Shown: in pieces, positions 469-38,705 of the stretch
Layout of the letters: each line of letters begins with the position of its first letter
Numbering within the stretch: the stretch's first letter is position 1
From: Nitrospirota bacterium
GTDB lineage: Bacteria; Nitrospirota; Thermodesulfovibrionia; Thermodesulfovibrionales; JdFR-85
Assembly (NCBI GenBank): GCA_013152195.1
Contig: JAADGU010000012.1
Coordinates: 1 to 40,014, forward strand
DNA: 40,014 nt
Reading direction: 5' to 3'
Notes under the pieces: generated by a model
What the model was told of the DNA's origin: nothing
The model's database searches: none
Seen by the model: the letters and a program-made list of their open reading frames with translations, nothing else
Position numbers and translations under genes: made by a program

Positions 469-817
469 GTACCAACTCCAGCAGGATTCGGGGGCTGAAA
501 GGTTTTGTTATGTAGCGGTCAACTCCGCATTTGATTCCCAGCTTTTCATCATCCTCCTGTCCCTTAGCCGTTAACATGAATACCGGTATGTTTGCAAGGT
601 CAGGGTCGGTCTTTATTGTTTTGCAGATGTTTATTCCACTGATCTCCGGCATCATCCAGTCAAGGATGATCAGGTCAGGCATCTCCCTTCGTATTACATC
701 AACAGCGCCTTTGCTCTCTCTGAGAGTAACAACCTCAAGCCCTCCACGTCTCAGCTTGTCCTCGATCATCATCAATATAAAGGGTTCATCATCGATTACC
801 ATCACTTTAGGCATCAT
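446..817 (-). CDS. stand-alone response regulator receiver (CheY-like)
   Basis: 123 aa. Has the acidic pocket VIDDEP, the phospho-acceptor Asp in LIILDWMMPE, then LTAKG and KPF. No output domain. Overlaps the kinase gene by 11 nt. Confidence 0.9.
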   Translation of the reverse strand: MMPKVMVIDDEPFILMMIEDKLRRGGLEVVTLRESKGAVDVIRREMPDLIILDWMMPEISGINICKTIKTDPDLANIPVFMLTAKGQEDDEKLGIKCGVDRYITKPFSPRILLELVLEQLGNK

Positions 818-13080: not shown

Positions 13081-13713
13081 ATGAGCCTGCCCGAGACCAA
13101 AGAGAGAATCCTCGATTCTGCTGAATACCTCTTTGCCCGGAAAGGATTCCACAATACCTCACTCAGGGCCATTACCGGCCGTGCAGCGGTGAACCTGGCG
13201 GCTGTTAATTATCACTTTGGCTCCAAGGAGGCACTCCTTGAGGCTGTTTTCGAAAGGCGGCTCGTGCCGTTGAACAAGGTCCGCCGGAAAAATCTTGAAG
13301 TGGTTCGTGAAACTGCACGTCGTGAGGGGAGACTCCCTGGCGTGGAAGAGTCCCTGCGGGCCTTTATTGAGCCAACGCTTGCCTTTCGTAAATCCGGGAC
13401 AGGGGCGGAAGACTTCATTACACTGGTGGGACGGGCCATGTCCGACCCTGACGATACAGTAAGAAATGTCTTTATACGCCATATTGCACCGTTGTTTTAT
13501 ATGCTCTTTGACATCCTGCGCGAGGCATTGCCGGAGCTCTCTCCGGATATGCTCTTCTGGCGGCTTCAGTTTGCCATTGGTGCCATGGGGCATGCCATCT
13601 GCATGGCAGGAAAAAGTTATTCCTTACCTGAGGGAGTCACGCCTGTCAGTGATGTGGAGTCACTGACAGCCATGCTCCTCGACTTTGTCGTGGCAGGGAT
13701 GGAGAGAGCATGA
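13081..13713 (+). CDS. TetR/AcrR-family transcriptional regulator
   Basis: 210 aa. N-terminal HTH: FARKGFHNTSLRAITGRAAVNLAAVNYHFGSKEAL. First gene of the efflux operon. Confidence 0.9.
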   Translation: MSLPETKERILDSAEYLFARKGFHNTSLRAITGRAAVNLAAVNYHFGSKEALLEAVFERRLVPLNKVRRKNLEVVRETARREGRLPGVEESLRAFIEPTLAFRKSGTGAEDFITLVGRAMSDPDDTVRNVFIRHIAPLFYMLFDILREALPELSPDMLFWRLQFAIGAMGHAICMAGKSYSLPEGVTPVSDVESLTAMLLDFVVAGMERA

Positions 13714-15131: not shown

Positions 15132-16330
15132 GTTTCAGGAGTAAAGTGTTCAGGATAGTTATACCGGTTATTATACTGATAGCAGGCTTTGTTGTCATGC
15201 GGCTGCTGGTGCTGTCCCGCCCTGCTCCTCAGAAGGAGATCAGGAGTAATCCCGGTGCCCTGGTTGAGGTCCTGACGGTCAGCAGGAAGGACCATCAGGT
15301 TCAGGTCATTGGAACGGGTACTGTGCAGGCGAGGAGGGAGGCAAGTATCACTCCCCGTGTGAGCGGCCGGATTACGTATATTGCCCCTGCATTTATTGCC
15401 GGAGGTTTTTTTTCCAGTGGAGACCTCCTATTTGAGATAGAGGCTGTTGACTACCAATTGGCTGTAGTCCGTGCCCGGGCTGTTCAGGCGCAGGCCGAAC
15501 TCGAGCTTGCCAAGGTGGAGAGCAGTGCCCTGATTGCCCGCCGGGAGTGGGAAGGACTGGCAACGGATAGTCTGGCAACGAATAAGAACGAAAAACCCAA
15601 TCCCCTGGTCCTCTACGAGCCTCAGATAAAGAAGGCCCGGGCTGATGTGGCAGCGGCCGGGGCTGTTTTAAAGCAGGCTGAACTTGATCTGCAGCGTACC
15701 CGCATATATGCACCTTTTGATTGCCGGGTTCGCTCTGAAGGGGTTGAGGCAGGACAGTATGTGCGTGCCGGCAGCAGTGTTGCTGTGGTGGCCGGGACAG
15801 AAACGGCCGAGATTGTTGTTCCCCTTTCCCTGGAGGATTTGCAGTGGTTGCGTATCCCCCGGCAGGGTTCTGAAGCTAAGGGTTCTCCTGCTAAAGTGAG
15901 AATCAGTGTTGGGAAAAAATCCTTCAGCTGGCAGGGCCGGGTGGTCCGTTCACTGGGGGAGGTTGATCCCAAAGGGCGTATGGCGCGGGTTGTGGTGGCT
16001 GTGGATGATCCCTATTACCTGAAAACCCGGAGAAATAATGATGAGCCTGACCTGGAGATGGGCATGTTTGTGGAGGTCACATTCTCCGGTGAGATACTGA
16101 CCGGTGTAGTTCCCGTTCCGGCAAGTGCCCTTCGCGAAAATAATACAGTCTGGGTTGTAAACAAAGAGGACAGACTCAATATCCGGCCGGTGACTGTGGT
16201 GCGGCGGGAGCAGCAGAGAGTGATTATCAGTGATGGTCTGAAGGAGGGGGAACGTCTGGTACTCACAAGCATTTCGGGGGCGGCTGAGGGTATGAAACTG
16301 CGGCTCCTGGATGAGGGGGAAGGACGATGA
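15128..16330 (+). CDS. RND efflux periplasmic adaptor (membrane fusion protein)
   Basis: N-terminal TM segment, coiled-coil hairpin (AQAELELAK ... AELDLQRTRIYAPFDCRV) and a C-terminal beta domain. Confidence 0.88.
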   Translation: MSFRSKVFRIVIPVIILIAGFVVMRLLVLSRPAPQKEIRSNPGALVEVLTVSRKDHQVQVIGTGTVQARREASITPRVSGRITYIAPAFIAGGFFSSGDLLFEIEAVDYQLAVVRARAVQAQAELELAKVESSALIARREWEGLATDSLATNKNEKPNPLVLYEPQIKKARADVAAAGAVLKQAELDLQRTRIYAPFDCRVRSEGVEAGQYVRAGSSVAVVAGTETAEIVVPLSLEDLQWLRIPRQGSEAKGSPAKVRISVGKKSFSWQGRVVRSLGEVDPKGRMARVVVAVDDPYYLKTRRNNDEPDLEMGMFVEVTFSGEILTGVVPVPASALRENNTVWVVNKEDRLNIRPVTVVRREQQRVIISDGLKEGERLVLTSISGAAEGMKLRLLDEGEGR

Positions 16331-19300
16331 GAGGAGCAGTCAAGTGGATGGCCAGCAATCATGTGGCCGCCAACCTGCTCATGATAATCCTGGTGGCCGG
16401 TGGTCTGATCAGGATATCTTCGATTAAACAGGAGGTCTTTCCGGAGATCAGCCTGGACACCATTCAGGTCACCGTGACTTATCCCGGTGCCGGACCCGAG
16501 GAGGTGGAAGAGGGGATACTTCTTCAGATTGAAGAGAACCTTACGGGTGTGGAGGGGATAAAGGAGATCAGGTCTGTGGCCAAGGAGGGTGTTGGTACGG
16601 TCAGGGCCGAGCTTTTGCCAGGGGAAGACCCTGATCTGAAGCTTCAGGAGATAAAGAGCGAGGTGGACCGGATTATCACCTTTCCGGTGGATGCCGAGAA
16701 ACCAGTGATTACCAAGCTCCTTAACCGCTTTGAGGTGATCTCGGTCGTGGTCTACGGTGATGCCTCGGACAGGGCTCTGAGGGAGCAGGCCGAGATTATC
16801 CGTGAAGAACTGCTTGCCCATCCGGAGATTACCCAGGTTGAACTCAGTGGTGTGCGGCCTTACGAGATTGCGGTTGAGATACCGGAGGAAAATCTTCGGC
16901 GCTACAATGTAACGATGGAGCAGGTGGCTCAACAGGTGAGACTGGCCTCCATTGACCTGCCGGGAGGTACTGTCAGGACCCGGGGCTCCGAGATCCTTCT
17001 GCGCACAAAGGGCCGCCGGCATTTCGGGCCTGAATATGCTGATATAACCGTGCTCACGAGGCCGGATGGCACGAGGGTAAGGCTTGGAGATATAGCAGAA
17101 GTAAAGGATGCCTTTGCCGATACCGGGATGTTTGCCAGGTTTGACGGTAAACCCGCAGCCATGGTGAAGGTTTTTCGGGTAGGGGATCAGAAACCGATCA
17201 GGATCTCCGGGGTTGTAAAGAAGTATGTGGAGCAGAAGAGAGGCTCCCTGCCGGATTCATTGAAGATTGCCCCCTGGAACGACACCTCGGAGCTCCTTCA
17301 CAGCCGCATGAATCTGCTGGAAAAAAACGCCTTTCTCGGTCTGACCCTGGTGATTATTATTCTCGGGCTCTTTCTCGAGATCCGGCTGGCCCTTTGGGTT
17401 ATGCTCGGCATTCCCATATCCTTTCTCGGAGCTTTGCTCCTCTTTCCTTACCTGGACGTATCCATAAACATGATATCCCTGTTTGCCTTTATCCTGGCAC
17501 TGGGAATCCTGGTGGATGATGCCATCATAGTAGGAGAAAATATCTATGAGCAGCGTCAGAAGGGAAAACCCTATCTTCAGGCAGCGATAGATGGTGCCCT
17601 TGAAGTGGCTGTTCCTGTAACGTTTTCGGTCCTGACCACTGTAGCGGCCTTTCTTCCCCTGGTCTTTGTCAGCGGCATGATGGGGAAGTTTATCAGGGTT
17701 ATTCCGCTTGTGGTGATCTCTCTGATGCTCCTGTCACTTATAGAATCCCTTTTTGTGCTGCCTGCCCATCTGGCCATGGGAGGGCCGCGTCCGGTGTCGC
17801 GCGGCCTGATCGGTGCTATCGACCGGGTTCGTACCGGTTTTGGCAGGAAGCTTGACAGGTTTATAGCCGGTCCATACCAGCGTTTCCTGAGTCTCTGTCT
17901 GAGAAACCGTTATACCACTGTGGCGGCAGGTATTGCCGTCCTGCTGTTAACCGTGGGGATTGTCAAGGGGGGAATTCTGAAGTTTCATTTCATGCCTGTT
18001 GTGGACGGTGATGTGATTACCGTTTCTCTGAAGATGCCTCCCGGAACACCTGTGGAGGAAACAGCGAGGGTGCAGAAATTCCTTGAAGAGAAGGCCATGG
18101 AGGTGGTGGCTGAGTATGACAGGCAACGTCCCGGGGGCGATTCCATCCTGCGGGATGTATATGCCGTGGTGGGAGGTACCATGATTGAGGCAGGGAATGT
18201 GGGGTCGAGTGTTGATTCGAGGACCCATCTCTCTGATATGGCCCTTTTTCTGAAACAGAGCGAGGAGCGGGGCATTCCGGCAGTGGAGATTGCAAACCGT
18301 TGGCGCGCAAAGGTGGGTGAGGTCCCGGGTGTGGAATCGATTGTTTTTACGTCCAATGTTGTTCGGATGGGCGCCAATATAGACATACAGCTTGCCCACG
18401 AGGATTTTGGTGTGCTTGACCTTGCCTCGGAGCGGATTAAGGAGGCCCTGGCCCAATACCCGGGTGTCGGGGATATAGAGGATAATTATTTTAAGGGGAA
18501 ACGGGAACTCAAGTTCCGCCTTACCCCTGAGGCCCGAACCCTCGGGGTTACGGAGGAGGACCTGGGCCGGCAGATCCGGGGGGCCTTTTACGGGGCCGAG
18601 GCCCTGAGATTCCAGCGGGGGCGCAATGAGGTCAAGGTCATTGTCCGATACCCTGAAGAGGATCGAAAGAGCCTTTGGGACCTGAAATCAATGAGGATCC
18701 GTACTCCGGATGGAGGGGAGCTTCCCCTGATCAGGGCTGCCTATATTATGGAGGGACGGGGTTTTAGTGAAATCAACCGTACAGACAGGAAACGGGTAAT
18801 CAATGTCACGGCAAGCGTGGATGACAAGACAGCCAATGCCGAGGAGATACTCTCTGATCTCAAACAGGGCATTCTCAGCAGGCTGGCCAATGATTATCCG
18901 GGCCTGACCTTTGATATGGGAGGAGAAGAAAAGGAGCGGATAGAATCCATGGGGAGTATGGTTCAGGGGTTTATGCTTGCCCTGCTCGGCATGTATGCCC
19001 TGCTTGCCATCCCTTTTAAAAGTTACAGCCAGCCCCTGCTGATAATGGCTGCTATTCCTCGGTATGGTGGGCGCTGTTGCCGGGCATCTGATAATGGGGT
19101 TCAAGCTGAGCATCCTCAGCATATTTGGTATAGTTGCCCTCTCCGGGGTTGTTGTTAATGATTCACTCCTTCTGATTGACAAGGTGAACAGGAACCGTCA
19201 GGAAGGTGCTGAACTCTTTCAGGCCGTGATTGATGGCTGCAAGCGCCGGTTCCGGCCGATCCTCCTGACGTCTCTAACAACATTTTTCGGACTGATGCCC

Positions 19301-19513
19301 ATGATACTGGAGACGAGCGTACAGGCCCAGTTCCTCATCCCCATGGCGATCAGCCTTGCTTTCGGGATACTCTTTGCTACAGGGATTACCCTGCTGCTTA
19401 TCCCCTCTCTTTATCTTGTCCTGGAAGATGTGCATAAACTCTTCAGGCTGCGCTCCATTCATACAGCTTCCCGCAATGAAATTGAAGAGAGTGAAGGTGC
19501 TCCCCGGTCATAA
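16327..19513 (+). pseudogene. RND efflux permease (AcrB/HAE1-like) interrupted by one frameshift near its C-terminal TM bundle
   Basis: ORF 16327-19158 is a typical RND permease up to ...PLLIMAAIP. The conserved continuation LGMVGAVAGHLIMGFKLSILSIFGIVALSGVVVNDSLLLID... is in the +1 frame (ORF 19064-19513). Confidence 0.85.
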
Positions 19514-20785
19514 TTCATCTGCGCCGGGAATTGTAACCCTGTTGCAAGGATTTTTCCCTCTCGTAAACCTGTATACCCTGTTGCGGCCCCCGTTTTTTGC
19601 GCAATACAGGGCCCGGTCCGCTGCTTTTATCAGTTCGTCTTTTGTATCAGCGTCTTCCGGAAAGGAGGCTATACCGATACTTATGGTTAGTGAGACGGTT
19701 TTACCCTCTACGAAAAAGGGGTGGCTTGCCACTGAAGAGCGCAGCCTTTCCGCCACCAGTTCAGCCTGCTTCAATGGCGTATCAGGGAGAATTACAGTGA
19801 ATTCCTCTCCCCCGTACCTGGCAGGGATATCTACACTACGGACGAGATTCCTGATAAGTCTTCCAATTGTTCTCAGGGCCTCATCCCCTGACATGTGACC
19901 GTAGGTATCATTAAAGCGTTTGAAGTGGTCGATGTCTGTCATGAGGAGAGAAAGCGTTTTTGTGTATCTCTTTGCCCTCAGAAACTCATGTTCAAGACGG
20001 TTGTGGAATTCCCTGTAGTTGTATAGTCCGGTAAGGCCGTCATGGGTGGCAAGTTCCTGTACTTTCTCATAAAGTCTGGCCTTTTCGATACGCAGTCCGA
20101 GGTAGTTCCCTATTGACGAGAAGATGCTAACATCTGAGGCGAGATGCAGATAACCAGGGGGGACAAAATACAGATAAATGAGACCCAAAACCTTGTCCCC
20201 GGACTTCAGCGGAATGCTGACATGGGCATGGTCCTCCTCCTTGCAGGCCGGGAGCATTCCTCCGTGATGTATTTCAGCCCGGCAGTAAGGGATTATATCG
20301 ACTTCCCCGGACTGTGCAGCCAGACCGCATATGCACTTGCCCAGGGGTATCCTTCCCCTGCAGCCCAGGGCTTCAGGGGAGATCCCTGAGGATGTGAAGT
20401 GAACGAGTTCTTCAGTTGCCTCATCAGTAAGGAATATGCCCCCGCTTATTTTTACCTCCCTGCCCACAGCCTTTTCCAGGGATTCCAGGGATCCGATGAT
20501 GGCTTTAAGGCTGTACTTAAGGATGTCCTTGATGCTGAGGTGTTTGCTTGCTACTGCAATAATTTCGTTAAAGGCCTTCAGTTCCCTTATCTCCAGGCCC
20601 TTCTTCAGGATCACCTCTGACCTTTTGGAGAGTTCGTTGAGGAGTCTTTCCTGTTCCCTGATGCTGGATAGCAACAGCTTTTCGTTTATTTCTGTCAGTC
20701 TTTTAACTTTCTCGAGCTCGAGCTTCAGGGAGTTGATTTCCCGGTCTTTTTTTGTCAGGTCGTTATCTTTTTCGTGATCTTTCAT
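19508..20785 (-). CDS. coiled-coil/GAF/GGDEF diguanylate cyclase
   Basis: Active site RYGGEEF, with an RxxD I-site (RSVD) five residues upstream. GAF-like block in the middle. I prefer ATG 20783-20785, which lies after the V4R stop, over the track start 20869, which would overlap V4R by 65 nt. Confidence 0.88.
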   Translation of the reverse strand: MKDHEKDNDLTKKDREINSLKLELEKVKRLTEINEKLLLSSIREQERLLNELSKRSEVILKKGLEIRELKAFNEIIAVASKHLSIKDILKYSLKAIIGSLESLEKAVGREVKISGGIFLTDEATEELVHFTSSGISPEALGCRGRIPLGKCICGLAAQSGEVDIIPYCRAEIHHGGMLPACKEEDHAHVSIPLKSGDKVLGLIYLYFVPPGYLHLASDVSIFSSIGNYLGLRIEKARLYEKVQELATHDGLTGLYNYREFHNRLEHEFLRAKRYTKTLSLLMTDIDHFKRFNDTYGHMSGDEALRTIGRLIRNLVRSVDIPARYGGEEFTVILPDTPLKQAELVAERLRSSVASHPFFVEGKTVSLTISIGIASFPEDADTKDELIKAADRALYCAKNGGRNRVYRFTRGKNPCNRVTIPGADEL

Positions 20786-20804
20786 GGAATCCTGACAGTC
20801 AGAT

Positions 20805-21260
20805 TCATAACAGATGGATCTGGAATTCGCAGTAATCAAAGCCTGATGTATGGCTTTTGGTCTGAACACCCTTTGTGGGCCTTTTCAGTACCCTCTCCAT
20901 GGCTCCCGCAATAATTCCCCCTTCAAAATGGCAGATCATCTTACCAATATCGGGCAGGCCGGAGCAGGTTATGCATTCATCGAGTCTGATAACAATCCTG
21001 TCGTCAGATGATTCCACAACCGTCAGAATGCCGATCTTCAGCTTCTTAAGGAGCGTGCCAAGCTCATCGACCGTGTTTACCTCAAGCTCAACACCGAGTT
21101 CTTTCCCGGCCAGATACAGGGTATAACCCGAGCCTTCACCCAGGATGCTATACATTCCGATTATTCTCAGCAGCCGAAATACCTCAACCGGAACCTCATC
21201 GCCAAGAGTTGGCCTTTTTGTTTTGCTGATATCCTCAAGCTTCACTTTTTTAATGTTCAT
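20805..21260 (-). CDS. V4R-domain (4-vinyl reductase-like) small-molecule-binding protein
   Basis: 151 aa. ...RLDECITCSGLPDIGKMICHFEGGIIAGAMERV... is the typical V4R Cys/Gly pattern. Confidence 0.7.
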   Translation of the reverse strand: MNIKKVKLEDISKTKRPTLGDEVPVEVFRLLRIIGMYSILGEGSGYTLYLAGKELGVELEVNTVDELGTLLKKLKIGILTVVESSDDRIVIRLDECITCSGLPDIGKMICHFEGGIIAGAMERVLKRPTKGVQTKSHTSGFDYCEFQIHLL

Positions 21261-21292: not shown

Positions 21293-22183
21293 TTAACTTG
21301 TCTTTCCAACCAACACCGGGCATTGACTGTGGCTGATTATCCTTCTTGATACGCTGCCCAGCATTCCCTTTATTCCCGTCAGACCTCTGCAACCGACAGC
21401 AATCAGGTCCACTCCAAATACACCTGCTGCGTTGAGTATCTCTATTGAGGGGTCCCCAATCTTTGTAATCCCCTCAATCTTATTGAATTTCTTGCTCAGG
21501 TATGGCCGGGCTTTCTCAATAATCCTGGATGATTCTTCAAACTCCAATGTCCTGGCCTTGGCTACTTCTTCTTTGATCTTATCATTTATTTCCATAATAA
21601 ACCTTTCCGGTATATCAGAGATGGCTGAACGGAGTACATTTATGATGATTACTTCGGCATCATCAGGGAACGGGATCGAGGCAAGAAATGCAGCAGTTGC
21701 ATGAGCTGAGTCAGAACCGTCTGTGGCAAAGAGAACCCTCATCCTGTCAGGTATCTCCCGAAGTGGAGGTTTGGTTACAAGGACAGGCTTTGGTGAGTTG
21801 ATTGCAACCGACCTGGTTACACTCCCGATGAAGAGCGATTTGACACCCTTTATTCCACGTGCGCCCATGACTATCAGGTCGACATCGGAAGCCACTGCTG
21901 CTTCGATAATTGCCTTGTCAGGGAAACCTTCGACAAGGGCCGTACTGATTCTTGCTTCTGCAGGTTTTAAAATATCGACCGCTGAATCGAGTATTTGCGG
22001 GGCAATCTTTTCTTTAAAATATTTAAGACTTATATAATAGGATTCCCTGTCATCATGATAGGGGCCCCAGCTTAATACATGGAGGACGATAATCTCATCA
22101 TCTGACGATAAGTTGAGTCTGGATAAGAATCCTGCCGCACCTTCTGAACATGCCGACCCGTCTGTGGCAAGCAATATCTTCAT
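21293..22183 (-). CDS. tandem universal stress protein (2 x UspA domains)
   Basis: Two repeats, each ending in an ATP-binding-type motif: MGARGIKGVKSLFIGSVT and VGCRGLTGIKGMLGSVS. Confidence 0.88.
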   Translation of the reverse strand: MKILLATDGSACSEGAAGFLSRLNLSSDDEIIVLHVLSWGPYHDDRESYYISLKYFKEKIAPQILDSAVDILKPAEARISTALVEGFPDKAIIEAAVASDVDLIVMGARGIKGVKSLFIGSVTRSVAINSPKPVLVTKPPLREIPDRMRVLFATDGSDSAHATAAFLASIPFPDDAEVIIINVLRSAISDIPERFIMEINDKIKEEVAKARTLEFEESSRIIEKARPYLSKKFNKIEGITKIGDPSIEILNAAGVFGVDLIAVGCRGLTGIKGMLGSVSRRIISHSQCPVLVGKTS

Positions 22184-23954: not shown

Positions 23955-24665
23955 TTAATCTGTAAGCTCATCAATATCTTCAAACAGCTTGGGAGATAAC
24001 ATAAACAGATCCCCGTTTTCAGTTATAAGATTACCTGACACGAGCCTTTTTATAACTTTCGAGATGGATTCCCTTGATGCCCCGATTCTCTCTGCAATTT
24101 CCTTATGTGTTCGTTTCTTGATCAGGTAGAAGCCGTTTTTTTTCTTCTTCCCCTCGTCTTTTATAAGCTTCTTGAATAACTTGACCAATCTTTGATGGAC
24201 AGCAAGGAAGGCAAGACTTTCCTCCCTTTCGGTTGCATTTCTCAGTCTCTGCACAAGAGACTTCAGAAGATCGATTGCAATCTCGGGGTCCTCTTTAATT
24301 GCATCAAGAAACCTGTTTCTCTCTAAAACTGCAAAGATTGAATCCTCTTCTGCTGTGACTGAAGCAGAACGCGGATTACCATCAATAAGGCTCATTTCCC
24401 CAAAAAAATCACCCGGGTTGAGATCTGTCAGTACAAACTCGTCTCCCTCCTCGCTCAACAGGGTTACTTTGACCTTGCCCTCAAGAATTATGTACATATC
24501 GGTGCTCTTGTCAGTCTGATAAAATACCGTTTCTCCTGCACGAAAAGTATGAATGGTAAAGTCATTAATTATCTGCTCCACACGTTTATCCGAAAGATTT
24601 CTGAATGCAGGAATTTCCTTCAGGAACTTCCCGACAAGAAGCTTGTCCTTTTCTTTTAAGATCAT
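23955..24665 (-). CDS. Crp/Fnr-family cyclic-nucleotide-binding transcriptional regulator
   Basis: cNMP-binding barrel (FFGEMSLIDGNPRSASVTA) and a C-terminal HTH (THKEIAERIGASRESISKVIKRL). Confidence 0.9.
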   Translation of the reverse strand: MILKEKDKLLVGKFLKEIPAFRNLSDKRVEQIINDFTIHTFRAGETVFYQTDKSTDMYIILEGKVKVTLLSEEGDEFVLTDLNPGDFFGEMSLIDGNPRSASVTAEEDSIFAVLERNRFLDAIKEDPEIAIDLLKSLVQRLRNATEREESLAFLAVHQRLVKLFKKLIKDEGKKKKNGFYLIKKRTHKEIAERIGASRESISKVIKRLVSGNLITENGDLFMLSPKLFEDIDELTD

Positions 24666-24824: not shown

Positions 24825-25017
24825 ACATTCTAAATATATATCCACTTTTTTTCTGTTATTTATCAGAGTTTGTTGGATATACACATAGGATTCAGGCATA
24901 TATGCTTTCATGGGTTTATTCCAGGATTTTTAAAAATCAATCTGGATAAATATAGTATATCATATCAGCTCTTCATCTATACGGTTTACTGTTGTCAGAA
25001 CAACAGAATAAATATAA

Positions 25018-27276
25018 ATGTCTAAATTACTGAAATCAGTTGTCCTGGGATTGGTTGTGGGTTTACTGGGCATTATCCTTAGCCTGAGCTCTTTTGGCCA
25101 TGAACTTGAAGAAAATCTTGGCCTTGGTCTGCTCTTTAAGCTGAGAGGGAAAAGGGATGCCCCTTCAGATGTTATAGTTGTCAATATTGACAGGGCATCT
25201 TCTGACAGGATGAACCTGCCGAAACGTCCCGTTGAATGGCCCCGTGCACTCCATGCCAGGCTTATAGATAATTTGCTCAGAGAAGGAGCGGAAGTTATAG
25301 TCTTTGATGTGACATTTGACAAAGAGAGCGATCCGGTAAATGACCGTATCTTTGCACAGGCAGTCCGCAAGGCCCGCAATGTTGTATTCTGTGAGTTTCT
25401 CAAGAAAGAGGTTGTTCCCTTTGGCGAACTGGATGGATATCATTCCGGAAAACTGGATATTGAAGAGTTGGTTCCGCCAATTCCCCTCCTTGCAGAGAAT
25501 GCTGCCGCTGTGGCACCTTTCCCTTTGCCCAAACTGCCCTTTCGTGTCAACCAGTACTGGACATTCAAGACATCTGCCGGCGATACCCCGACTTTACCGG
25601 TTGCAGCATTTCAGATCTATGGATTTCAGGTCTACAACGAATTTATTGAGCTGCTGAAAAAAAACTATACAGGTGAGAAAGATATACTCTCCATTCAGAA
25701 GGATGAACTTGTAGGTTCCGGCAGGGTTGTTGAATTCATGATGACTCTCAGGGATATTTTTCGTAAGGATCCAGCAATGGCAGACAGGATGTTTGCAGAG
25801 TTAAAAAACTCGAAAACATTTGCAGCAGACATGCGCAAGAGGCAGATTCTGACATCCCTGATAGAAATGTACCAGGCCCCGGACAGCCAGTACCTCAACT
25901 TTTACGGTCCTTCCAGTACCATTACAACTGTGCCGTATCATCAGGTGCTTTATATGAGTAACGATCTGGATACCGGCACAAGGGAGATTGATTTCAGGGG
26001 TAAAGTCGTATTTGTAGGACAGGCAGAGACCCAGCCATACCTGCAGAAAGACGGTTTTTATACTGTTTTTAGCACTGCTGATGGTTTGGACCTTAATGGT
26101 GTCGAGATTGCAGCCACAGCATTTGCAAATATTCTTGAGGGTCTGCATGTCACACCCCTCAGGATGCCTTCGCTTCTTGGCTTGATCCTGATTTTCGGAT
26201 TGTTCCTGGGATTGACTGCCTTTCTCCTCCCCTCCATCCCGGCGATTATGATCATAACCGGCATTAATGCATTATATCTTTACTTTGCTCTTTATCAGTT
26301 CAGGATGGAGGGGGGCTGGTACCCCCTTGTGGTGCCATGCCTGTTACAGTCACCTGCATCTTTTTTTGGTGCTGTTATCTGGAAGTATGTTGATACAGGC
26401 AGGGAACGGCAAAAAATAAGAAAGGCCTTCAGCTACTACCTGCCTGAAGATATTGTTGATACGTTAATAACGAATATCGGCGATGTCAGGGCAAGTACCC
26501 AGATTGTAAACGGGACATGTCTGTATACCGATCTGGAGCAGTATACTGCGCTGTCTGAAACAATGGAACCGGAAGAGCTGAGCAGTTTCGTCAAGCAATA
26601 TTATGAGACTATTTTTGGTCCGGTAAAACGATATGGTGGTGTTATTTCCAATGTCGTTGCTGATTCAATGCTGGCATTATGGGTCTCCGCTCTGCCAGAT
26701 GATCCGCAAAGGAAGAAAGCCTGTCTTGCAGCACTTGATTTGGCAGAGGCTGTTAAAGTGTTTAATCAATCCTCCAGTGATGTAAAAATATCAACGAGGA
26801 TAGGCTTGAATTTCGGCCGTTTTCTGCTCGGAAATATCGGTGCCATTGATCATTACGAGTACCGTCCTATTGGTGATATCGTTAACACGACGGCACGGAT
26901 AGAGGGTCTGAATAAACACCTGGGCACATATTTGCTGGCCTCGGAAGAGACAGTTGAAGGCGTCGGAGGGATTCTTATGAGAGAACTGGGTGTTTTTCTT
27001 TTGTACGGGAAGGCAAAACCAGTAAGGGTATTTGAATTGATATGCCGTACCGATAAAATGACAGAAGCTCAGCAGGAGCTGTGTTTAAGCTTTGCTGAAG
27101 CCCTTGATGCCTTCAGAAATCAGATGTGGGAAGATGCTGCAGAAAGGTTTAATGATATAATAAGAAAATACGGAAAAGACGGCCCGTCTCAATACTATCT
27201 GAACTTAATTCATAGTTGCAGGGAAAATCCTCCTGGAAAATCATGGGATGGTGTTATTTGTGTGGAAAAAAAATAG
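25018..27276 (+). CDS. CHASE2 sensor-domain class III nucleotidyl (adenylate/guanylate) cyclase
   Basis: 752 aa. N-terminal TM segment, a large extracytoplasmic CHASE2-like region (VVVNIDRAS..., VFDVTFD), a TM cluster around residues 385-450, and a cyclase domain (CLYTDLEQYTALSE ... VADSMLALW ... GDIVNTTARIEG). Confidence 0.85.
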   Translation: MSKLLKSVVLGLVVGLLGIILSLSSFGHELEENLGLGLLFKLRGKRDAPSDVIVVNIDRASSDRMNLPKRPVEWPRALHARLIDNLLREGAEVIVFDVTFDKESDPVNDRIFAQAVRKARNVVFCEFLKKEVVPFGELDGYHSGKLDIEELVPPIPLLAENAAAVAPFPLPKLPFRVNQYWTFKTSAGDTPTLPVAAFQIYGFQVYNEFIELLKKNYTGEKDILSIQKDELVGSGRVVEFMMTLRDIFRKDPAMADRMFAELKNSKTFAADMRKRQILTSLIEMYQAPDSQYLNFYGPSSTITTVPYHQVLYMSNDLDTGTREIDFRGKVVFVGQAETQPYLQKDGFYTVFSTADGLDLNGVEIAATAFANILEGLHVTPLRMPSLLGLILIFGLFLGLTAFLLPSIPAIMIITGINALYLYFALYQFRMEGGWYPLVVPCLLQSPASFFGAVIWKYVDTGRERQKIRKAFSYYLPEDIVDTLITNIGDVRASTQIVNGTCLYTDLEQYTALSETMEPEELSSFVKQYYETIFGPVKRYGGVISNVVADSMLALWVSALPDDPQRKKACLAALDLAEAVKVFNQSSSDVKISTRIGLNFGRFLLGNIGAIDHYEYRPIGDIVNTTARIEGLNKHLGTYLLASEETVEGVGGILMRELGVFLLYGKAKPVRVFELICRTDKMTEAQQELCLSFAEALDAFRNQMWEDAAERFNDIIRKYGKDGPSQYYLNLIHSCRENPPGKSWDGVICVEKK

Positions 27277-27385
27277 ATACAGTGTGTAATATAAGAGTAT
27301 TGGTTAATCGTTTCTGCGATGCAAAAGTTACAGTGAGGTCTTTTCCTCGAGTTTTAAAATGTTCCTTTTTAAGGAGGATATTTAT

Positions 27386-30300
27386 TTGAGACCGATTTTG
27401 CCCCGTCTTCTTATTTTGTTAACTCTTCTTTTTTTACTCCCGGTAATTATTCCCTCACATGCCATGGCTGCAGAGAAATGTGAGGTGTTGGTAGCAAAGG
27501 TGGTTTCTGTTCAGGGCATAGCTGAAGTCAGGAGAGCAGGGGGGATAGAGTGGAAACCCATTAGATTGAACAACACGTTTTGTCCCGGGGATATGATCCG
27601 TCTTAAGGAAGACAGCCGGGCATCCATTGTTCTGAGCAATGAAACCATTATCCGGCTTGACCAGAATACGACTATAACGTTCAGTGGGATTGAGAAGAAA
27701 GAGACCTCCCTGCTTGACCTTATAAAAGGGGCCGTTCATTTCCTGAGCCGTGTTCCCAGAACTCTCAAGGTTATCACCCCTTATGTGAATGCTTCAGTAG
27801 AGGGTACGGAATTCCTGGTTAGAGTAGACAAGGGTAAAACCTTCCTGTCGGTCTTTGAAGGGAAGGTCCTGGCCTCAAACAGTTCAGGAAGTCTGGTGTT
27901 GACAGGTGGCCAGTCGGCCGTTGCAGAAGAGGGGAGGGCTCCGGTACTGAAAGTTGCTGTTAATCCCAGGGATGCAGTACAATGGGCGCTCTATTACCCT
28001 CCTATTGTGGAGTATCCCGAGAAAATAACTGAAGACGAAAGGAATCCGTTGTACCTGACTTACCGGGCTTCGTTGATGCTTTCTGTAGGCCGTGTTGAAG
28101 AGGCACGCAGATATATCGAGCGGGCATTGTCTCTGGAGCCTGAAAACAGTCAGGCCATTGCACTTCAGTCTGTTATTTCTGTTGTGCAGAATGACAAGGA
28201 ACGTGCCCTTGTCCTTGCACAGAAGGCTGTTAATGCCGATCCCTCATCAGCTGCAGCACTTATCGCCCTTTCTTATGCACAGCAGGCAAACTTCGATCTT
28301 AAGGGGGCTCTGAAAAGCCTCCGGAAGGCAGTGGAGACTGAACCTGAAAACAGTCTTGCCTGGGCACGTCTGTCAGAGATGTGGCTGTCTTTCGGATATC
28401 TTGACAAGTCTCTTGAGGCAGCACATAAAGCCGTTGAGTTGAACCCAAACCTGTCACGTACGCAAACAGTCCTTGGCTTCGCATACCTTGCACAGGTTAT
28501 GATTCAGGAGGCCAGGGATGTTTTTGAAAAGGCTATTGAACTGGACCAGGCTGATCCGCTTGCGCGTCTTGGTCTGGGACTGGCAAAAATCCGTCAGGGG
28601 TATCTGAAGGAAGGACGCAGGGAAATTGAGATTGCCGTAAGCCTGGATCCAAACCAGTCTATTATCAGGAGCTATCTCGGGAAGGCATACTATGAAGAAA
28701 AGCGGGAGAAGCTCTCAAAAGACCAGTACGGTGTAGCGAGGGAACTCGACCCCCTTGATCCCACCCCTTTCTTCTACGATGCGATTCTGAAACAGAGCAT
28801 TAATCGTCCGGTAGAGGCACTACATGATATGCAGGAAGCAATAGAGCTGAATGATAACCGGGCTGTATACCGTTCCAGGCTTCTGCTTGATGATGACCTT
28901 GCAGCACGCAGTGCAAGTATTGCCCGCATTTACAGTGACCTCGGGTTTCAGCGGCTTGCCCTTGTGGAGGGATGGAAATCGGTTAATACGGATCCAAAGA
29001 ACTACTCAGCACACAGGTTGCTGGCCGATACATATGCCTCACAGCCACGCCACGAGATAGCACGGGTCAGCGAACTCCTCCAGTCTCAACTGCTTCAACC
29101 TCTCAACATAACCCCGGTTCAACCACGGCTTGCTGAGAGCAATCTGTTTGTTTTTGATCGGGCCGGTCCGGGAGACCTGTCATTTAATGAATTTAATCCC
29201 CTTTTCAACCGGAACCGGTTAGCATTGCAGTTAAGTGGAGTTTACGGTGGAAATGCTACCTTCGGTGATGAAATTGTTGCATCAGGTGTATATGACAGGT
29301 TTTCCTTAAGCACGGGACAGTTCCATTACGAGACAGATGGATTCAGGAGAAATAATGATCTTCGGGAGGATATCTATAATATATTTGCCCAGTACAATAT
29401 CTCCTACAAGACAAGCATCCAGGCTGAATTCCGCTACAAGAAAAAGGAAAACGGGGACCTGTCACTCAACTTTGATCCTGATGCATTTTTTTCTTCCGGA
29501 AGAGAGGAGGAGGAGGGCACGTCAATACGTTTGGGTTTTCATCACAGTTTTACGCCAAACTCGGAAATAATAGCATCTGCTATCCATAAAAGTGCTGAAT
29601 ATGATTACTTTGTTTCCACTTCTGATCCTGTTGCCGGAGCACCAACGACAACGGAAGTCACACTTAACGCTAAAGATAGGGGCTACCTTTGGGAAATCCA
29701 GCACCTTTATAATGCAGAGCTGACACACATTATTAGTGGTTTAGGTTTCTTCAGCTCTGATGCTGAGAATAAAACAACGACTACTATCAAGATGCCCCCA
29801 CTTCCGGCGATCTCGCCTCCTGCAACATTTGAGCAGACCGATGTGCGCCACAGCAACCTTTATGTCTATTCACATATCAACTACCCCGATGCTGTAGTGT
29901 GGACCATCGGAGGAAGCGCTGATTTTTTTGATAACGAAACGATTGATAGAACCCAGTTTAATCCAAAGATTGGTATGACCTGGACCCTTCCGACCAACAC
30001 GACCCTCCGGGGTGCTGTCTTCAGGACATTAAAGAGACAGCTCATTTCGAACCAGACGATTGAGCCAACCCAGGTGGCAGGGTTCAATCAGTTTTTTGAT
30101 GACGCCAATGGAACGGATGCCTGGAGATATGGTGTTGCGATAGATCAGAAGTTCACCCGGAATATTTTTAGTGGCGCAGAGTTCTCCAGGCGTAAAATGG
30201 ATGTACCGTTTAAGATGCTGACAATCCTGCCACCTCCCTCCGAACCTGTTACTGAAAATAAAGTGGCGGATTGGGAAGAAGACATAGTTCGCGTTTATCT

Positions 30301-30715
30301 GTATCTGACACCTGCAAACTGGTTGGCAATCAGTGGCGAATACCAATATGAAGACTTCAAAAGAGACCTGGAATATTTCGGTCCTGAAGATATAGAACGT
30401 TTAAAAACCCGGAGATTGCCCTTGAGTCTCTCTTTTTTCGGTTCCAATGGCCTGACAACCGTAATTACAACAACTTACGTGGATCAGAAAGGGAAGTTTG
30501 TTAATCCCGTTAGCCTGGTATTATTTGAAGACAGTGACCGGTTCTGGGTTGTTGATGCGTCCATCAGATATCGATTACCTAAACGCTATGGTATAGTTTC
30601 AGTCGAAGCACGAAACCTGTTCAATGAAACATTCAAGTTCCAGGATACCGATTCTACAAATCCATCCATTTATCCGGAGCGATTAATACTGGCTAAAGTT
30701 ACATTGGCATTTTGA
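27386..30715 (+). CDS. secreted FecR-domain / multi-TPR / C-terminal beta-barrel-like fusion protein
   Basis: TTG 27386 lies 8 nt after AAGGAGG and gives the signal peptide (M)RPILPRLLILLTLLFLLPVIIPSHAMA/AEK. The track ATG 27359 has no SD. FecR blocks: GDMIRLKEDSRASIVLSNETIIRLDQNTTITF and VITPYVNASVEGTEFLV. About 8-10 TPRs follow. The last ~500 aa are rich in alternating beta patterns and end RLILAKVTLAF with a terminal aromatic residue. Confidence 0.8.
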   Translation: MRPILPRLLILLTLLFLLPVIIPSHAMAAEKCEVLVAKVVSVQGIAEVRRAGGIEWKPIRLNNTFCPGDMIRLKEDSRASIVLSNETIIRLDQNTTITFSGIEKKETSLLDLIKGAVHFLSRVPRTLKVITPYVNASVEGTEFLVRVDKGKTFLSVFEGKVLASNSSGSLVLTGGQSAVAEEGRAPVLKVAVNPRDAVQWALYYPPIVEYPEKITEDERNPLYLTYRASLMLSVGRVEEARRYIERALSLEPENSQAIALQSVISVVQNDKERALVLAQKAVNADPSSAAALIALSYAQQANFDLKGALKSLRKAVETEPENSLAWARLSEMWLSFGYLDKSLEAAHKAVELNPNLSRTQTVLGFAYLAQVMIQEARDVFEKAIELDQADPLARLGLGLAKIRQGYLKEGRREIEIAVSLDPNQSIIRSYLGKAYYEEKREKLSKDQYGVARELDPLDPTPFFYDAILKQSINRPVEALHDMQEAIELNDNRAVYRSRLLLDDDLAARSASIARIYSDLGFQRLALVEGWKSVNTDPKNYSAHRLLADTYASQPRHEIARVSELLQSQLLQPLNITPVQPRLAESNLFVFDRAGPGDLSFNEFNPLFNRNRLALQLSGVYGGNATFGDEIVASGVYDRFSLSTGQFHYETDGFRRNNDLREDIYNIFAQYNISYKTSIQAEFRYKKKENGDLSLNFDPDAFFSSGREEEEGTSIRLGFHHSFTPNSEIIASAIHKSAEYDYFVSTSDPVAGAPTTTEVTLNAKDRGYLWEIQHLYNAELTHIISGLGFFSSDAENKTTTTIKMPPLPAISPPATFEQTDVRHSNLYVYSHINYPDAVVWTIGGSADFFDNETIDRTQFNPKIGMTWTLPTNTTLRGAVFRTLKRQLISNQTIEPTQVAGFNQFFDDANGTDAWRYGVAIDQKFTRNIFSGAEFSRRKMDVPFKMLTILPPPSEPVTENKVADWEEDIVRVYLYLTPANWLAISGEYQYEDFKRDLEYFGPEDIERLKTRRLPLSLSFFGSNGLTTVITTTYVDQKGKFVNPVSLVLFEDSDRFWVVDASIRYRLPKRYGIVSVEARNLFNETFKFQDTDSTNPSIYPERLILAKVTLAF

Positions 30716-30797: not shown

Positions 30798-31013
30798 ATG
30801 CCGAAGGTAGTCATGAGATTAGCAGTAATGGATAACGGAACGATTAAAGTAGAAAAAGGTGACATGGGAGTACCGGAGAAATTGACCAAACCTGCATTCA
30901 GGAAGAGCCTTCACGGAAAAAAGATGAAGAATGCTGAAAGCATCATGGTTCTTCAGAGCAATCCTTGCACCTGGGTGAATGCCCTTGGTACATGGTATTA
31001 CATCTGCTGGTAG
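30798..31013 (+). CDS. 71-aa hypothetical protein with a basic N-terminal part and a Cys/Trp-rich C-terminal tail
   Basis: GAGGAGG (30785-30791) lies 6 nt before the ATG, and an intrinsic terminator lies 57 nt after the stop. The sequence ends ...SNPCTWVNALGTWYYICW. I recognise no family. Confidence 0.6.
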   Translation: MPKVVMRLAVMDNGTIKVEKGDMGVPEKLTKPAFRKSLHGKKMKNAESIMVLQSNPCTWVNALGTWYYICW

Positions 31014-31070: not shown

Positions 31071-31097
31071 AAACCGGCCGAAAGGCCGGTTTTTTTT
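31071..31097 (+). terminator. rho-independent terminator
   Basis: AAACCGGCC-GAAA-GGCCGGTTT followed by a T-run: 9-bp GC-rich stem, GNRA-type loop, 8 T. Confidence 0.85.
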
Positions 31098-31226
31098 GAC
31101 ACATGACGCCATCGGTTCCAGTTATCTGAGTACCTTCCCTCAATTATCCTTCTTTAAGTTAATGAATGCTTCTGCCAATGTGAATTTTACCTTTACTCCT
31201 CCTGAAGATAATGTTAAATTTATTTC

Positions 31227-31559
31227 ATGAAGGAAGACATAAAAGAAAATTGCTGGGAGTTCATGAGATGCGGGAGAGAACCCGGGGGAGTGCATGCAGA
31301 AGAACTTGGGGTCTGTCCGGTTACCACAGAAGTCTCTGCAGATGGTTTAAATGGTGGTGTCAATGGGGGAAGGGTCTGTTGGGTTATTGAAGACAATTGT
31401 TGTCGCGATGCACTTGAAAAGATTGGCAGGAGTAAGAAATCTTCCTGTATGAGATGTGAATTTCATATTCGTGTTAAATCTGAAGAAAGTATTCTGGATC
31501 TGTGTAACACAATCGGAAAGTATCTGACTGAAATTCATCCTGTTGAAGCCCTTTATTAG
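31227..31559 (+). CDS. stand-alone Cys-rich 'two-CW'-type domain protein
   Basis: 110 aa: NCWEFMRCGREPGG...LGVCPV...NGGVNGGRVCWVIEDNCC...SSCMRCEF. This matches my recollection of the two-CW domain, which is usually N-terminal in larger signalling proteins. No clear SD. Confidence 0.6.
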   Translation: MKEDIKENCWEFMRCGREPGGVHAEELGVCPVTTEVSADGLNGGVNGGRVCWVIEDNCCRDALEKIGRSKKSSCMRCEFHIRVKSEESILDLCNTIGKYLTEIHPVEALY

Positions 31560-36224: not shown

Positions 36225-38705
36225 ATGACAGATAAGGCCGAGGTATTCAGAGAAGCTCAGAGATTTCTTTCAAAGGGTCAGATAGATAAAGCTATCTATG
36301 CATGGCGGGAGTATGTCGGCCAGCATCCTGACGGCAATATTTATAATACCATAGGGGACCTCTGTCTTAAGAGTGGAAATCGTTCACAGGCAATTGAATA
36401 CTTCCATAAGGCTGCTGAATATTTCAGGGATGAAGGATTTGTAACCAAGTCACTGGCCCTCTATAAAAAAATTCTTAATATTGATTCCCTTGACCCCAAG
36501 GCATTGTTGTTTATTGGCAGACTGAATGAGGAAAAAGGTCTGATTACCGATGCCATCAAATATTATCTTGCCTCTATTGATGCCTATATCAAGCATGGAA
36601 TAAGGGATGAACTCATCCCCATATGTGAAAGAATAATTAATCTTGCCCCTTCCAACCTCTCCTTGAGGGTAAAACTTGCGGAATATCTTCAGAAAGAGGG
36701 TTATGTTGAAGAAGCAGCCAGAGAATATCTGGATGTAGGAAGGATATCTGAAGAAAAGGGTGATGTTGCTAAGGCAAGGGAATACTATGAGAGGTCGTTT
36801 GAGCTCTATCCACGACAGGAAACTATCTATAAACGCATGGCTGATTTTTATATTTCCCAGGGGCTTATGGAGAATGCAAGAGAACTCCTCGGCAAGGGGA
36901 TAGAACTGTATCCTGACAATATTCAGATACAGCTGCGTTACTCTGAGCTTCTTCTGAAGGAGGGAGACCTTGCAACTGCAAAGGATATGCTCCTCAATAT
37001 TCTCTCCACGTATCCCATAGAGTCAGGTGACGAGATTGCTATTGAGGCAAGCAGGCTTCTTGGAGATCTCTATCTTGAGGAGGGTCAGAAAGAACTTGCC
37101 TGGCGTAGTTATAAAACGGTGCTGGATGATTATATCGGAAGAGGGCTGTATGAAGAGGCTGTAAGGTTTCTGAAGAAATTCAGGGATACGGCGCCACTTG
37201 AGTGTTCGGAAAAGCTTGTCGAGGTTTACAATGAACTCGGGAAAGAGGATGCCCTCTTTGATGAACTACTAACGCTTGCTGAGATACAATCAGGTCAGGG
37301 AGCTTTAGAGGATGCGTTTACCTCTTACATAGAAGCAAGGAAGATCAGGCCTGATTCAGAAGCCGTAATCTCCAGAATAGCGGAACTGGAGGAGAAACTT
37401 GGCATTACTTTTCCGTCTGAGAAAGAAGAGAAGGCAACCGACGAGAAACTTGTTGATGTGGATATCTTTTTAAGATATGGCCTGATGGATGAGGCTGTGG
37501 ATGTTCTGGAAAAACTTAAGGTTGAAGAGCCTGAGAATCTGGAAGTTCATAAAAGGTTGAAGGATATCTATCTTGAGATGAATGATAAAGAGGGGGTCGT
37601 GACAGAATGTCTTATTATCGCCAAGATACATGAAAAAGAGGGGCGGATGGAACAAAGGGAGCAAGCGCTCAAGGAGGCTTTTGAGATAGACCCGGAGGAT
37701 CCGAGGCTGTTGGAACTCTCCAGTGCCACAGAGGAAGTTAGCGCTTCACCGTCTCCTGATTCCACGTTCGAGGAGTCAGGGATCCTAACGTTCGAAGATG
37801 AGTCCGAAGTGCCGGAAGGAGGGACTGAGACGGCAGATGTCTATGAGACTTCTGTGAGGCCACCATCTATTGAGGATTTTAAAGACGACCTGTCAGAGGC
37901 AGAGTTTTATATGCGTCAGGGTTTATACCAGGAAGCCCTTTCATCATACACCAGGGTACTTGAGATTTTTCCTGACAATAAAGAGTTACTGGCAAAGGTC
38001 TCGGATATCAAGAACAGGCTTTCTACAGTTGAGACCTCAATTTCAATAAAGCCTGAGGATGATAAGGCTGGTTTTTCAGAAGACATGCCCGCTGATTTTT
38101 CAGAGGAGATACCCCTTGATATTGCATCTGAAACCGGGCCTGTTACAGGTGGAGTTATTACTGAAGAACCTGTTGAGGAGGAGGTGCCTGAACCGAGCCT
38201 TGATAGCGAAGTGCTTGAGATATTTGAAGAATTCAAACGAGGGGTTTCTGAGGAACTTGAGGAGGAGGATTCGGAGACTCACTATAATCTCGGTATAGCT
38301 TATAAGGAGATGGGACTTATTGATGATGCCATAAAAGAATTCCAGACTGCAAGGAGGGATCCGAGCAGAAAGGTTCAGGCTGCAAGCATGCTCGGACTCT
38401 GTTTTATGGAGAAGAAACTCTATTCCCTGGCCATTGATGCCTTGCGGGAGGCGATAGATAATATAGCGGAGAGGGACGGGGCTTATTGGAGTACAAAGTT
38501 TGAACTTGCAGAGGCATATGAGAAAAATGATGAGATTGAACAGGCCCTGAATCTGTATGTCGAGATTTACGGATGGGATTCGAAGTTCAGAAACGTTGGC
38601 GAGAAGATAACTGTTTTGAAAGAAAAGTTGGGCGTTGATGAATCTGAGGCTGCAGTAATTGAGGATACCTTCAAGCAGGGAAAAGACAGGATTTCATACT
38701 TGTAA
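36225..38705 (+). CDS. large cytoplasmic TPR-repeat protein with an acidic central linker
   Basis: 826 aa with no signal peptide. TPR-like repeats over residues ~1-500 and ~690-800. A Glu/Asp/Ser/Pro-rich low-complexity region lies between them. Confidence 0.75.
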   Translation: MTDKAEVFREAQRFLSKGQIDKAIYAWREYVGQHPDGNIYNTIGDLCLKSGNRSQAIEYFHKAAEYFRDEGFVTKSLALYKKILNIDSLDPKALLFIGRLNEEKGLITDAIKYYLASIDAYIKHGIRDELIPICERIINLAPSNLSLRVKLAEYLQKEGYVEEAAREYLDVGRISEEKGDVAKAREYYERSFELYPRQETIYKRMADFYISQGLMENARELLGKGIELYPDNIQIQLRYSELLLKEGDLATAKDMLLNILSTYPIESGDEIAIEASRLLGDLYLEEGQKELAWRSYKTVLDDYIGRGLYEEAVRFLKKFRDTAPLECSEKLVEVYNELGKEDALFDELLTLAEIQSGQGALEDAFTSYIEARKIRPDSEAVISRIAELEEKLGITFPSEKEEKATDEKLVDVDIFLRYGLMDEAVDVLEKLKVEEPENLEVHKRLKDIYLEMNDKEGVVTECLIIAKIHEKEGRMEQREQALKEAFEIDPEDPRLLELSSATEEVSASPSPDSTFEESGILTFEDESEVPEGGTETADVYETSVRPPSIEDFKDDLSEAEFYMRQGLYQEALSSYTRVLEIFPDNKELLAKVSDIKNRLSTVETSISIKPEDDKAGFSEDMPADFSEEIPLDIASETGPVTGGVITEEPVEEEVPEPSLDSEVLEIFEEFKRGVSEELEEEDSETHYNLGIAYKEMGLIDDAIKEFQTARRDPSRKVQAASMLGLCFMEKKLYSLAIDALREAIDNIAERDGAYWSTKFELAEAYEKNDEIEQALNLYVEIYGWDSKFRNVGEKITVLKEKLGVDESEAAVIEDTFKQGKDRISYL

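Follow-up and report, generated by a model that had tools for sequence, protein, structure and literature searches.

A predicted outer-membrane receptor with a FecR-like head, a TPR rod and a plug-less barrel, encoded beside a CHASE2 cyclase in a Nitrospirota genome

Within a 40,014-nucleotide stretch of a vent-type Nitrospirota genome (assembly GCA_013152195.1, contig JAADGU010000012.1, positions 1 to 40,014; hereafter the window), the forward strand carries an open reading frame (ORF) of 1118 codons at 27359-30715 that is open throughout. A preliminary description of this DNA recognised in the product a signal peptide, a FecR domain, about ten tetratricopeptide repeats (TPRs) and a C-terminal region resembling an outer-membrane barrel, a combination for which it knew of no precedent, and proposed that such a protein could link ligand sensing in the periplasm to a channel in the outer membrane, or tether the sensor to that membrane. 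The locus thus raises the question of what kind of protein is encoded here and with which partner it would act. The comparisons presented below relate the protein, hereafter the receptor, to the outer-membrane receptor NsrA of Sinorhizobium meliloti, and make it likely that it is a trans-envelope sensor of the NsrA family which feeds a cyclic-nucleotide switch via a CHASE2 cyclase.

Domain layout of the receptor and its relation to NsrA

The receptor ORF was divided into the following parts, with residues numbered from ATG 27359:

27359..27469, forward strand: Sec signal peptide, receptor residues 1-37, read from the sequence
27491..27958, forward strand: FecR-like all-beta periplasmic domain, residues 45-200
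28046..29095, forward strand: predicted TPR superhelix of eight regular repeats and two helical pairs, residues 230-579
29096..29215, forward strand: extended linker from the TPRs to the barrel, residues 580-619
29216..30715, forward strand: predicted 22-strand outer-membrane barrel of TonB-dependent-transporter type, plug-less, residues 620-1118 and stop codon

A full-length AlphaFold2 (AF2) model was computed from a 68-sequence subset of an alignment of 127 homologues and reached a mean predicted local distance difference test score (pLDDT) of 89.7 and a predicted template modelling score (pTM) of 0.87. Residues 1-37 read as a basic n-region, a hydrophobic LLILLTLLFLLPVIIP and the cleavage motif AMA↓AE, and a helix at 14-30 in this signal-peptide region is modelled with low confidence. 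As GGAGG is found at 27373-27377, 8 nt upstream of the in-frame TTG 27386, the true start is probably this TTG rather than ATG 27359, which would place it at residue 10 and give a protein of 1109 aa with the signal peptide retained. The public gene call for the receptor (P0003, 1076 aa) begins at V43, and the signal peptide is lost from it.

The FecR family (Pfam PF04773) matches residues 80-170 (E 2e-16), within a modelled all-beta domain at 46-198 (pLDDT ~90); a sequence search of the FecR region against solved structures found nothing. Pfam TPR families were found from residue 231 to ~561, and the AF2 model has 20 helices in residues 230-579, comprising eight regular TPRs and two more helical pairs, which makes the original count of about ten repeats a fair one. 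The last 500 residues form the barrel, with 22 strands between residues 620 and 1117 both in the full-length model and in a separate model of residues 560-1118. At the C-terminus (...LILAKVTLAF) hydrophobic residues alternate and the last residue is F, with TLAF being the family consensus. According to these models the receptor is an outer-membrane protein with a FecR-like head, a TPR rod and a 22-strand barrel. The signal peptide, the FecR head, the C-terminal barrel of ~500 residues and the terminal aromatic residue were thus all borne out, and the strand count on the predicted structure gave a closed barrel, with no sign of the soluble beta-sandwich or beta-helix that had been considered as the alternative.

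The closest functional reference is NsrA, an outer-membrane receptor which is needed, together with CyaK, for the perception of 'signal 1'/uL2, whose overproduction resulted in a more sensitive assay, and whose barrel portion comprises residues 600-1200 (PMC7529298); the S. meliloti pathway of NsrA and its CHASE2 adenylate cyclases has been summarised elsewhere (PMC13001267). The nsrA gene was located on pSymB by tblastn, with cyaK directly downstream. Pfam assigns FecR (66-160) and TPRs (378-587) to NsrA, and CHASE2 and a cyclase domain to CyaK. When the profile of the receptor family was aligned with NsrA using hhalign, the two matched from end to end (probability 99.94%, E 4e-37, 991 columns; query 50-1107, NsrA 43-1186), with receptor region 45-200 pairing with NsrA 43-201, and the barrel profile alone matched NsrA 601-1200 (probability 97.8%, E 1.2e-12, 388 columns). 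Three motifs are common to the barrel family and NsrA, namely NPK.G..W.P....LRAA, T(L/I)xP..(V/I)(A/V)G...NQF and NL(F/L)DE.F. Both proteins have the signal peptide, FecR domain, TPRs and C-terminal barrel in the same order (1200 aa in NsrA and 1118 aa here), both have a CHASE2 class III cyclase encoded next to them, and the S. meliloti pathway (CyaK, CyaD1/D2, Clr), like the present locus, includes a Crp-family regulator. Based on the end-to-end profile alignment, the barrel homology and the shared motifs, the receptor is, by sequence comparison, a distant member of the NsrA family with the same type of partner.

The family proved to be large. Of 8,000 candidates scored against the C-terminal 519 residues, 3,581 clusters (90% identity) matched; nearly all are proteins of 1,000-1,200 aa with FecR, TPRs and PF00593, and they go by generic names such as 'tetratricopeptide repeat protein' and 'FecR domain-containing protein'. 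When 1.84 billion representatives (50% identity) were scanned in full, 2,607 matched, 1,130 of these with E<1e-30. In one-genome-per-species data, receptor homologues are encoded in at least 510 species, with carriers in Nitrospirota, Desulfobacterota, Methylococcaceae and other Gammaproteobacteria, Rokubacteria, Planctomycetota, Brocadia, Dadabacteria, Binatia and Spirochaetia, and including the cultured Desulfosarcina alkanivorans PL12. The nearest relatives (74-86% identical) come from Nitrospirae/Nitrospirota and hydrothermal-vent assemblies, and the family is found in free-living anaerobes of many habitats. With a well-populated family and an end-to-end alignment to NsrA at hand, the view that the architecture had no known counterpart had to be abandoned: architecture and kind are already published, and the family is widespread, its mechanism being little explored.

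Barrel type, conservation and other envelope systems

In the AF2 models, even-to-odd strand connections are 2-5 residues long and odd-to-even connections are longer, and this alternation of short turns and longer loops therefore gives the topology of an outer-membrane barrel. The separate model of residues 560-1118 had a pLDDT of 90.4. When it was compared with solved structures using Foldseek, the best matches (FhuE, FpvA, FptA) reached E 1e-19 and 302 matches had E<=0.001; every match listed was a TonB-dependent transporter (FhuE, FpvA, FptA, FoxA, FhuA and others). Alignments of the barrel to transporters with VIA-align gave Z values of 20-23.5, with 394-479 residues aligned at a root-mean-square deviation of 3-4 Å. 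By sequence, the barrel profile gave only marginal matches among solved structures, all to TonB-dependent transporters (E ~1), and the Pfam match to an outer-membrane barrel family, at receptor residues 1055-1103, stayed below the threshold; in precomputed Pfam lists the barrel family PF00593 is assigned to most of 120 homologues. The plug domain PF07715 had no match in the receptor at E<=0.01 and none in the same lists of 120 homologues. Only ~40 linker residues precede the first barrel strand in the AF2 model, and the residues ahead of this strand pair with N-terminal plug residues of transporters in the VIA alignments. As modelled, the barrel is of the TonB-dependent-transporter type, with 22 strands and without a plug domain, and the alignment ranges suggest that the linker (580-619) may lie in or under the lumen, partly replacing the plug.

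The receptor shares further traits with TonB-dependent transporters (FhuA, FhuE, FpvA, BtuB, PirA, Cir), which likewise have the 22-strand fold and a terminal aromatic residue: an NLF(D/N)E motif is present near its C-terminus and many of its homologues match PF00593. Unlike the transporters, it has a FecR-TPR module and a 40-residue linker at the position of the plug. A TonB box was not recognised in the receptor, no search dedicated to it having been made; TonB and ExbBD are absent from the annotated neighbours, and no ABC uptake genes are adjacent to the receptor gene.

BcsC, PgaA, PelB and Slam (DUF560), named in the preliminary description as known TPR-barrel fusions, also have periplasmic TPRs followed by a C-terminal outer-membrane barrel. 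Their barrels are smaller where we can compare the strand numbers, with 16 strands in BcsC and PgaA and 14 in Slam compared to 22 in the receptor. The NCBIfam model for PgaA matched only the TPR part of the receptor, at 23.6 bits versus a cut-off of 367, and neither exopolysaccharide nor lipoprotein-cargo genes are adjacent to the receptor gene. All four proteins are absent from the listed structural matches of the barrel, no direct comparison having been made. The prediction of a closed outer-membrane barrel consequently stands, and judging from the listed structural matches, which are all TonB-dependent transporters, the barrel is probably not of the type found in these four proteins.

The FecR-like head invites comparison with the FecR/PupR anti-sigma factors (FecA-FecR-FecI), which also have a periplasmic PF04773 domain and belong to systems in which an outer-membrane barrel signals to the cytoplasm. 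In contrast to these, FecR is fused to the barrel protein in the receptor and the output is a nucleotide cyclase. The receptor has neither a cytoplasmic anti-sigma domain nor a transmembrane helix, as its FecR domain follows a cleavable signal peptide, and there is no extracytoplasmic function (ECF) sigma gene among its annotated neighbours. Further parallels are the 'BiofilmReg' operon of Burkholderia, in which a LysM-FecR protein is encoded beside a CHASE2 histidine kinase (PMC5192318), and the CHASE2 cyclases of Campylobacterota, which are clustered with an outer-membrane protein that has a FecR domain and with a TPR protein (PMC9239204). These systems differ from the receptor in that FecR is on a LysM carrier, or the TPR protein is separate, and the output can be a kinase. 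By analogy, the occurrence of FecR envelope proteins beside CHASE2 sensors suggests a general FecR-CHASE2 partnership.

Conservation along the receptor was recorded as the frequency of the top residue per column in the 127 homologues. The surface loops L4, L5, L6, L8, L9 and L10 vary and carry many indels, as would be expected from surface exposure, with top-residue frequencies of 0.05-0.33 and gaps of up to 75%. Loops L2, L3, L7 (KRQLISNQTIEPTQVAGFNQFFDD...) and L11 have frequencies of 0.57-0.82 and nearly no indels, and the linker 580-619 a frequency of 0.65 and zero indels. Residues 500-579 are the best-conserved stretch (0.77-0.87), and the segment 500-513 is the conservation peak of the receptor, yet is modelled with pLDDT <50 (500-511); such high conservation combined with low pLDDT would fit a site that becomes ordered upon partner binding. 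Mean column identity is 64% among 28 homologues of different phyla. Overall, the conservation pattern fits the relay of a signal.

The CHASE2 cyclase and the surrounding genes

The genes and signals nearest to the receptor are the following:

25018..27276, forward strand: CHASE2 class III nucleotide cyclase (from Pfam), predicted in the inner membrane, counterpart of CyaK
23955..24665, reverse strand: Crp-like regulator with a cyclic-nucleotide-monophosphate (cNMP)-binding domain and a Crp-type helix-turn-helix, divergent from the cyclase gene
30798..31013, forward strand: 71-aa protein with a C-terminal Trp/Cys motif (…SNPCTWVNALGTWYYICW), AGGAGG 7 nt before the ATG
31076..31099, forward strand: terminator-like hairpin and T-run, GGCCGAAAGGCCGG followed by eight T, a consensus match only

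The cyclase gene ends 82 nt upstream of the receptor ORF, and its product comprises a CHASE2 domain (19-397, E 1e-28), bracketed by transmembrane segments, and a Guanylate_cyc domain (499-631). One receptor gene and one CHASE2 gene were found in the genome itself (1.58 Mb, 78% complete). Gene pairing was counted over 80 related loci within a reach of 8 kb: in 42 loci, drawn from many phyla, the gene immediately upstream in the same orientation encodes a full-length CHASE2 cyclase, and ~22 more have one at another position within 8 kb, in total ~64 of the 80. Other neighbours are not widely conserved, the next commonest being GAF-sigma54 activators (16 loci) and Crp-like regulators (11-24 loci), and near the receptor in four loci a cNMP-binding domain is carried by a glutaminase; all three could be readers of the cyclic nucleotide. 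The conserved upstream cyclase, which the preliminary description had passed over, therefore indicates the most likely function of the receptor. Together with the homology to NsrA, this pairing makes a part in signalling, as originally suggested, probable; the novelty then attached to that suggestion was lost with the architecture.

In the cyclase, within residues ~540-625, the two Asp residues that bind metal are conserved, as are the Asn and Arg of the transition state. Its substrate-specifying positions, assigned from what is established for class III cyclases, are unusual: 4 residues ahead of the second metal Asp, the adenine-specifying Lys of CyaK is replaced by Asn (Asp in the family consensus), and 7 residues ahead of the catalytic Asn, the Ser of CyaK is replaced by Arg. 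In adenylate cyclases the substrate-specifying positions hold Lys and Asp/Thr. From these residues, the product may be a nucleotide other than cAMP.

The Crp-like regulator matches Pfam cNMP_binding (E 8e-26) and HTH_Crp_2, and its best NCBIfam match is CRP, at 114 bits and under the cut-off; it is a likely reader of the cyclase product. No enrichment of CRP-type sites (TGTGA-N6-TCACA with <=2 mismatches) was seen in the window, and the intergenic region between the regulator and the cyclase contains no such site. The Clr-box TGTTN8AACA is a motif described in S. meliloti (PMC5498481), and its sole exact match in the window is TGTTGTCAGAACAACA at 24990-25005 (forward strand), 13 nt before the cyclase start codon. 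This match was discounted as regulatory evidence, being missing upstream of all 58 related cyclase genes. The same TGTTGTCAGAACAACA is a perfect inverted repeat, and a hairpin is also possible.

Downstream of the receptor, the locus differs from that of nsrA in that the branch to which the window belongs has an extra small gene for a Trp/Cys protein. Eight close relatives of the 71-aa protein (71-72 aa) have been called as genes, none with a Pfam domain, and in ~20 related loci of other phyla the receptor is followed at once by a small ORF whose ending resembles (N/S)P.C-x9-13-C. A hidden Markov model of the small protein matched only directly downstream of the receptor among 23,227 ORFs from the related loci and the window, and the small-protein family is present in ~25 of 75 related loci. 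The 71-aa protein itself had no match in Pfam or NCBIfam and only uninformative ones in the ESM Atlas (0.86-0.89, unnamed clusters), and a signal peptide is not obvious in most members, the window copy included. The gene is probably the third of an operon with the cyclase and the receptor, and the hairpin at 31076-31099, judging from its sequence, probably marks the end of this transcription unit. A bolder proposal is that the three genes form a functional unit of cyclase, plug-less receptor and a Trp/Cys protein acting as co-receptor, lid or self-made ligand, signalling with a nucleotide other than cAMP. We hold this to be doubtful; if true, cyclic-nucleotide signalling across the envelope would have a variant that is so far undescribed yet widespread in anaerobic phyla.

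Past the putative operon terminator, a 110-aa protein with two CW domains is encoded at 31227-31559 (forward strand; NF045718, 91 bits). It was considered as a further part of the module and dropped, as it neighbours the receptor only in the window and in its closest relative (L001) among the 80 loci.

Elsewhere in the window, the following features were identified:

807-4037, reverse strand: HAMP-PAS-GAF histidine kinase
13081-19158, forward strand: TetR regulator, outer-membrane factor, membrane-fusion protein and AcrB-type resistance-nodulation-division (RND) pump
19508-20869, reverse strand: GAF-GGDEF diguanylate cyclase
21293-22183, reverse strand: tandem universal stress protein
36225-38705, forward strand: 826-aa TPR protein with a faint match to an MtxA C-terminal domain

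The pump region (13081-19158) has a G+C content of 0.53-0.56 versus ~0.45 in its flanks. The AcrB-like ORF is 943 aa long and matches profile positions 8-897 of 1021, with short overlapping ORFs at 19064-19898, and may be frameshifted or truncated at its 3' end.

A possible route for the signal, and other readings

The domain anatomy, the barrel type, the homology to NsrA and the conserved pairing of the two genes are shown by the present comparisons, and a route for the signal can be outlined from them. Once exported by Sec, the receptor would insert its C-terminal barrel of 22 strands into the outer membrane, leaving the FecR-like domain and the TPR rod in the periplasm. A cue would arrive either at the barrel, on its variable surface loops, or in the periplasm. 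It would then pass along the strongly conserved loops that face the lumen, through the linker and the final TPRs, into the FecR/TPR part, which would touch the periplasmic CHASE2 domain and alter the activity of the cyclase. The divergently encoded Crp-like regulator would then read the cyclic nucleotide. That a receptor of this kind is required for signal perception via CHASE2 cyclases is taken from the genetics of S. meliloti and would apply here by analogy. That the FecR/TPR part touches CHASE2 directly, which way the signal runs, what the cue is and which nucleotide is made are inferences of our own.

Several observations weigh against this interpretation. The receptor and NsrA are only ~22% identical, the gene order differs, with the cyclase upstream here and downstream in S. 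meliloti, and the host is a free-living, vent-type Nitrospirota known from a metagenome-assembled genome, so that the plant/uL2 cue of S. meliloti does not transfer. Among the 80 related loci, a CHASE2 gene is lacking within 8 kb in eleven, and five contigs are too short to tell. The filling of the lumen and the side on which the TPRs lie are predictions. A physical contact between the FecR/TPR part and CHASE2 is not reported in the accessible literature, nor was it seen here. Finally, with non-canonical residues at its specificity positions the cyclase has an uncertain product, and a Pfam cyclase score of 39 bits suggests that the same may hold even for its activity.

A related account would dispense with the external ligand: the receptor would tie the cyclase to the outer membrane and read envelope spacing, integrity or barrel assembly in the manner of RcsF or NlpE. 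The strong conservation of the periplasmic parts and the inward-facing loops across phyla (the 64% mean column identity of the 28 homologues) is easier to reconcile with a conserved internal partner than with a diversity of external ligands. The family is also spread over free-living anaerobes from many habitats. However, six surface loops are variable and indel-rich, as expected for contact with a ligand or the environment, and NsrA responds in S. meliloti to an added external protein signal (PMC7529298). We regard a sensor of the envelope state as unlikely, if conceivable.

The order of the parts also resembles type V secretion, with a passenger, a helix, an extended linker and a C-terminal barrel that has no plug domain and whose linker seems to overlap the plug position of transporters. 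In such an arrangement the barrel would export the FecR-TPR part through its own lumen, to serve as a surface adhesin or binding module, and the link to the cyclase would be regulatory only. Classical autotransporters have 12 barrel strands, in contrast to the 22-strand, transporter-type barrel predicted here, and in transporter plugs it is the N-terminal part, which faces the periplasm, that the residues before the first strand align with. Moreover, CHASE2, as the conserved partner domain, lies in the periplasm, conservation is far higher in the FecR/TPR part than in the surface loops, and FecR-domain proteins that lack a barrel likewise pair with CHASE2 sensors (PMC5192318); surface display is thus quite improbable. 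It is harder still to see in the plug-less barrel a TonB-independent pore for uptake or export, with the TPRs as a periplasmic scaffold as in BcsC and PgaA. The barrel does have the fold of a transporter family, and TPR-barrel fusions do exist in exopolysaccharide systems, but there is no recurrent neighbour encoding a polysaccharide synthase, an ABC transporter, ExbBD or TonB, the sole strongly conserved neighbour being a signalling enzyme. Four long conserved loops and the linker would also probably occlude the lumen, and the phenotype of NsrA mutants is one of signalling (PMC7529298), which leaves a transport channel a very faint prospect.

Signalling to the CHASE2 cyclase by a receptor of the NsrA family remains the preferred reading of the locus. 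A protein of 1118 aa that had no annotation, from a vent-type Nitrospirota, has hereby been placed, by sequence comparison, in the NsrA family, and places at which to probe the receptor mechanism are offered by the barrel type, by the variable as opposed to the conserved loops, and by the conserved, poorly ordered segment 500-513. The pairing of NsrA with a CHASE2 cyclase, studied only in one rhizobium, is accordingly widespread, with homologues of the receptor in the many phyla and at least 510 species mentioned above.

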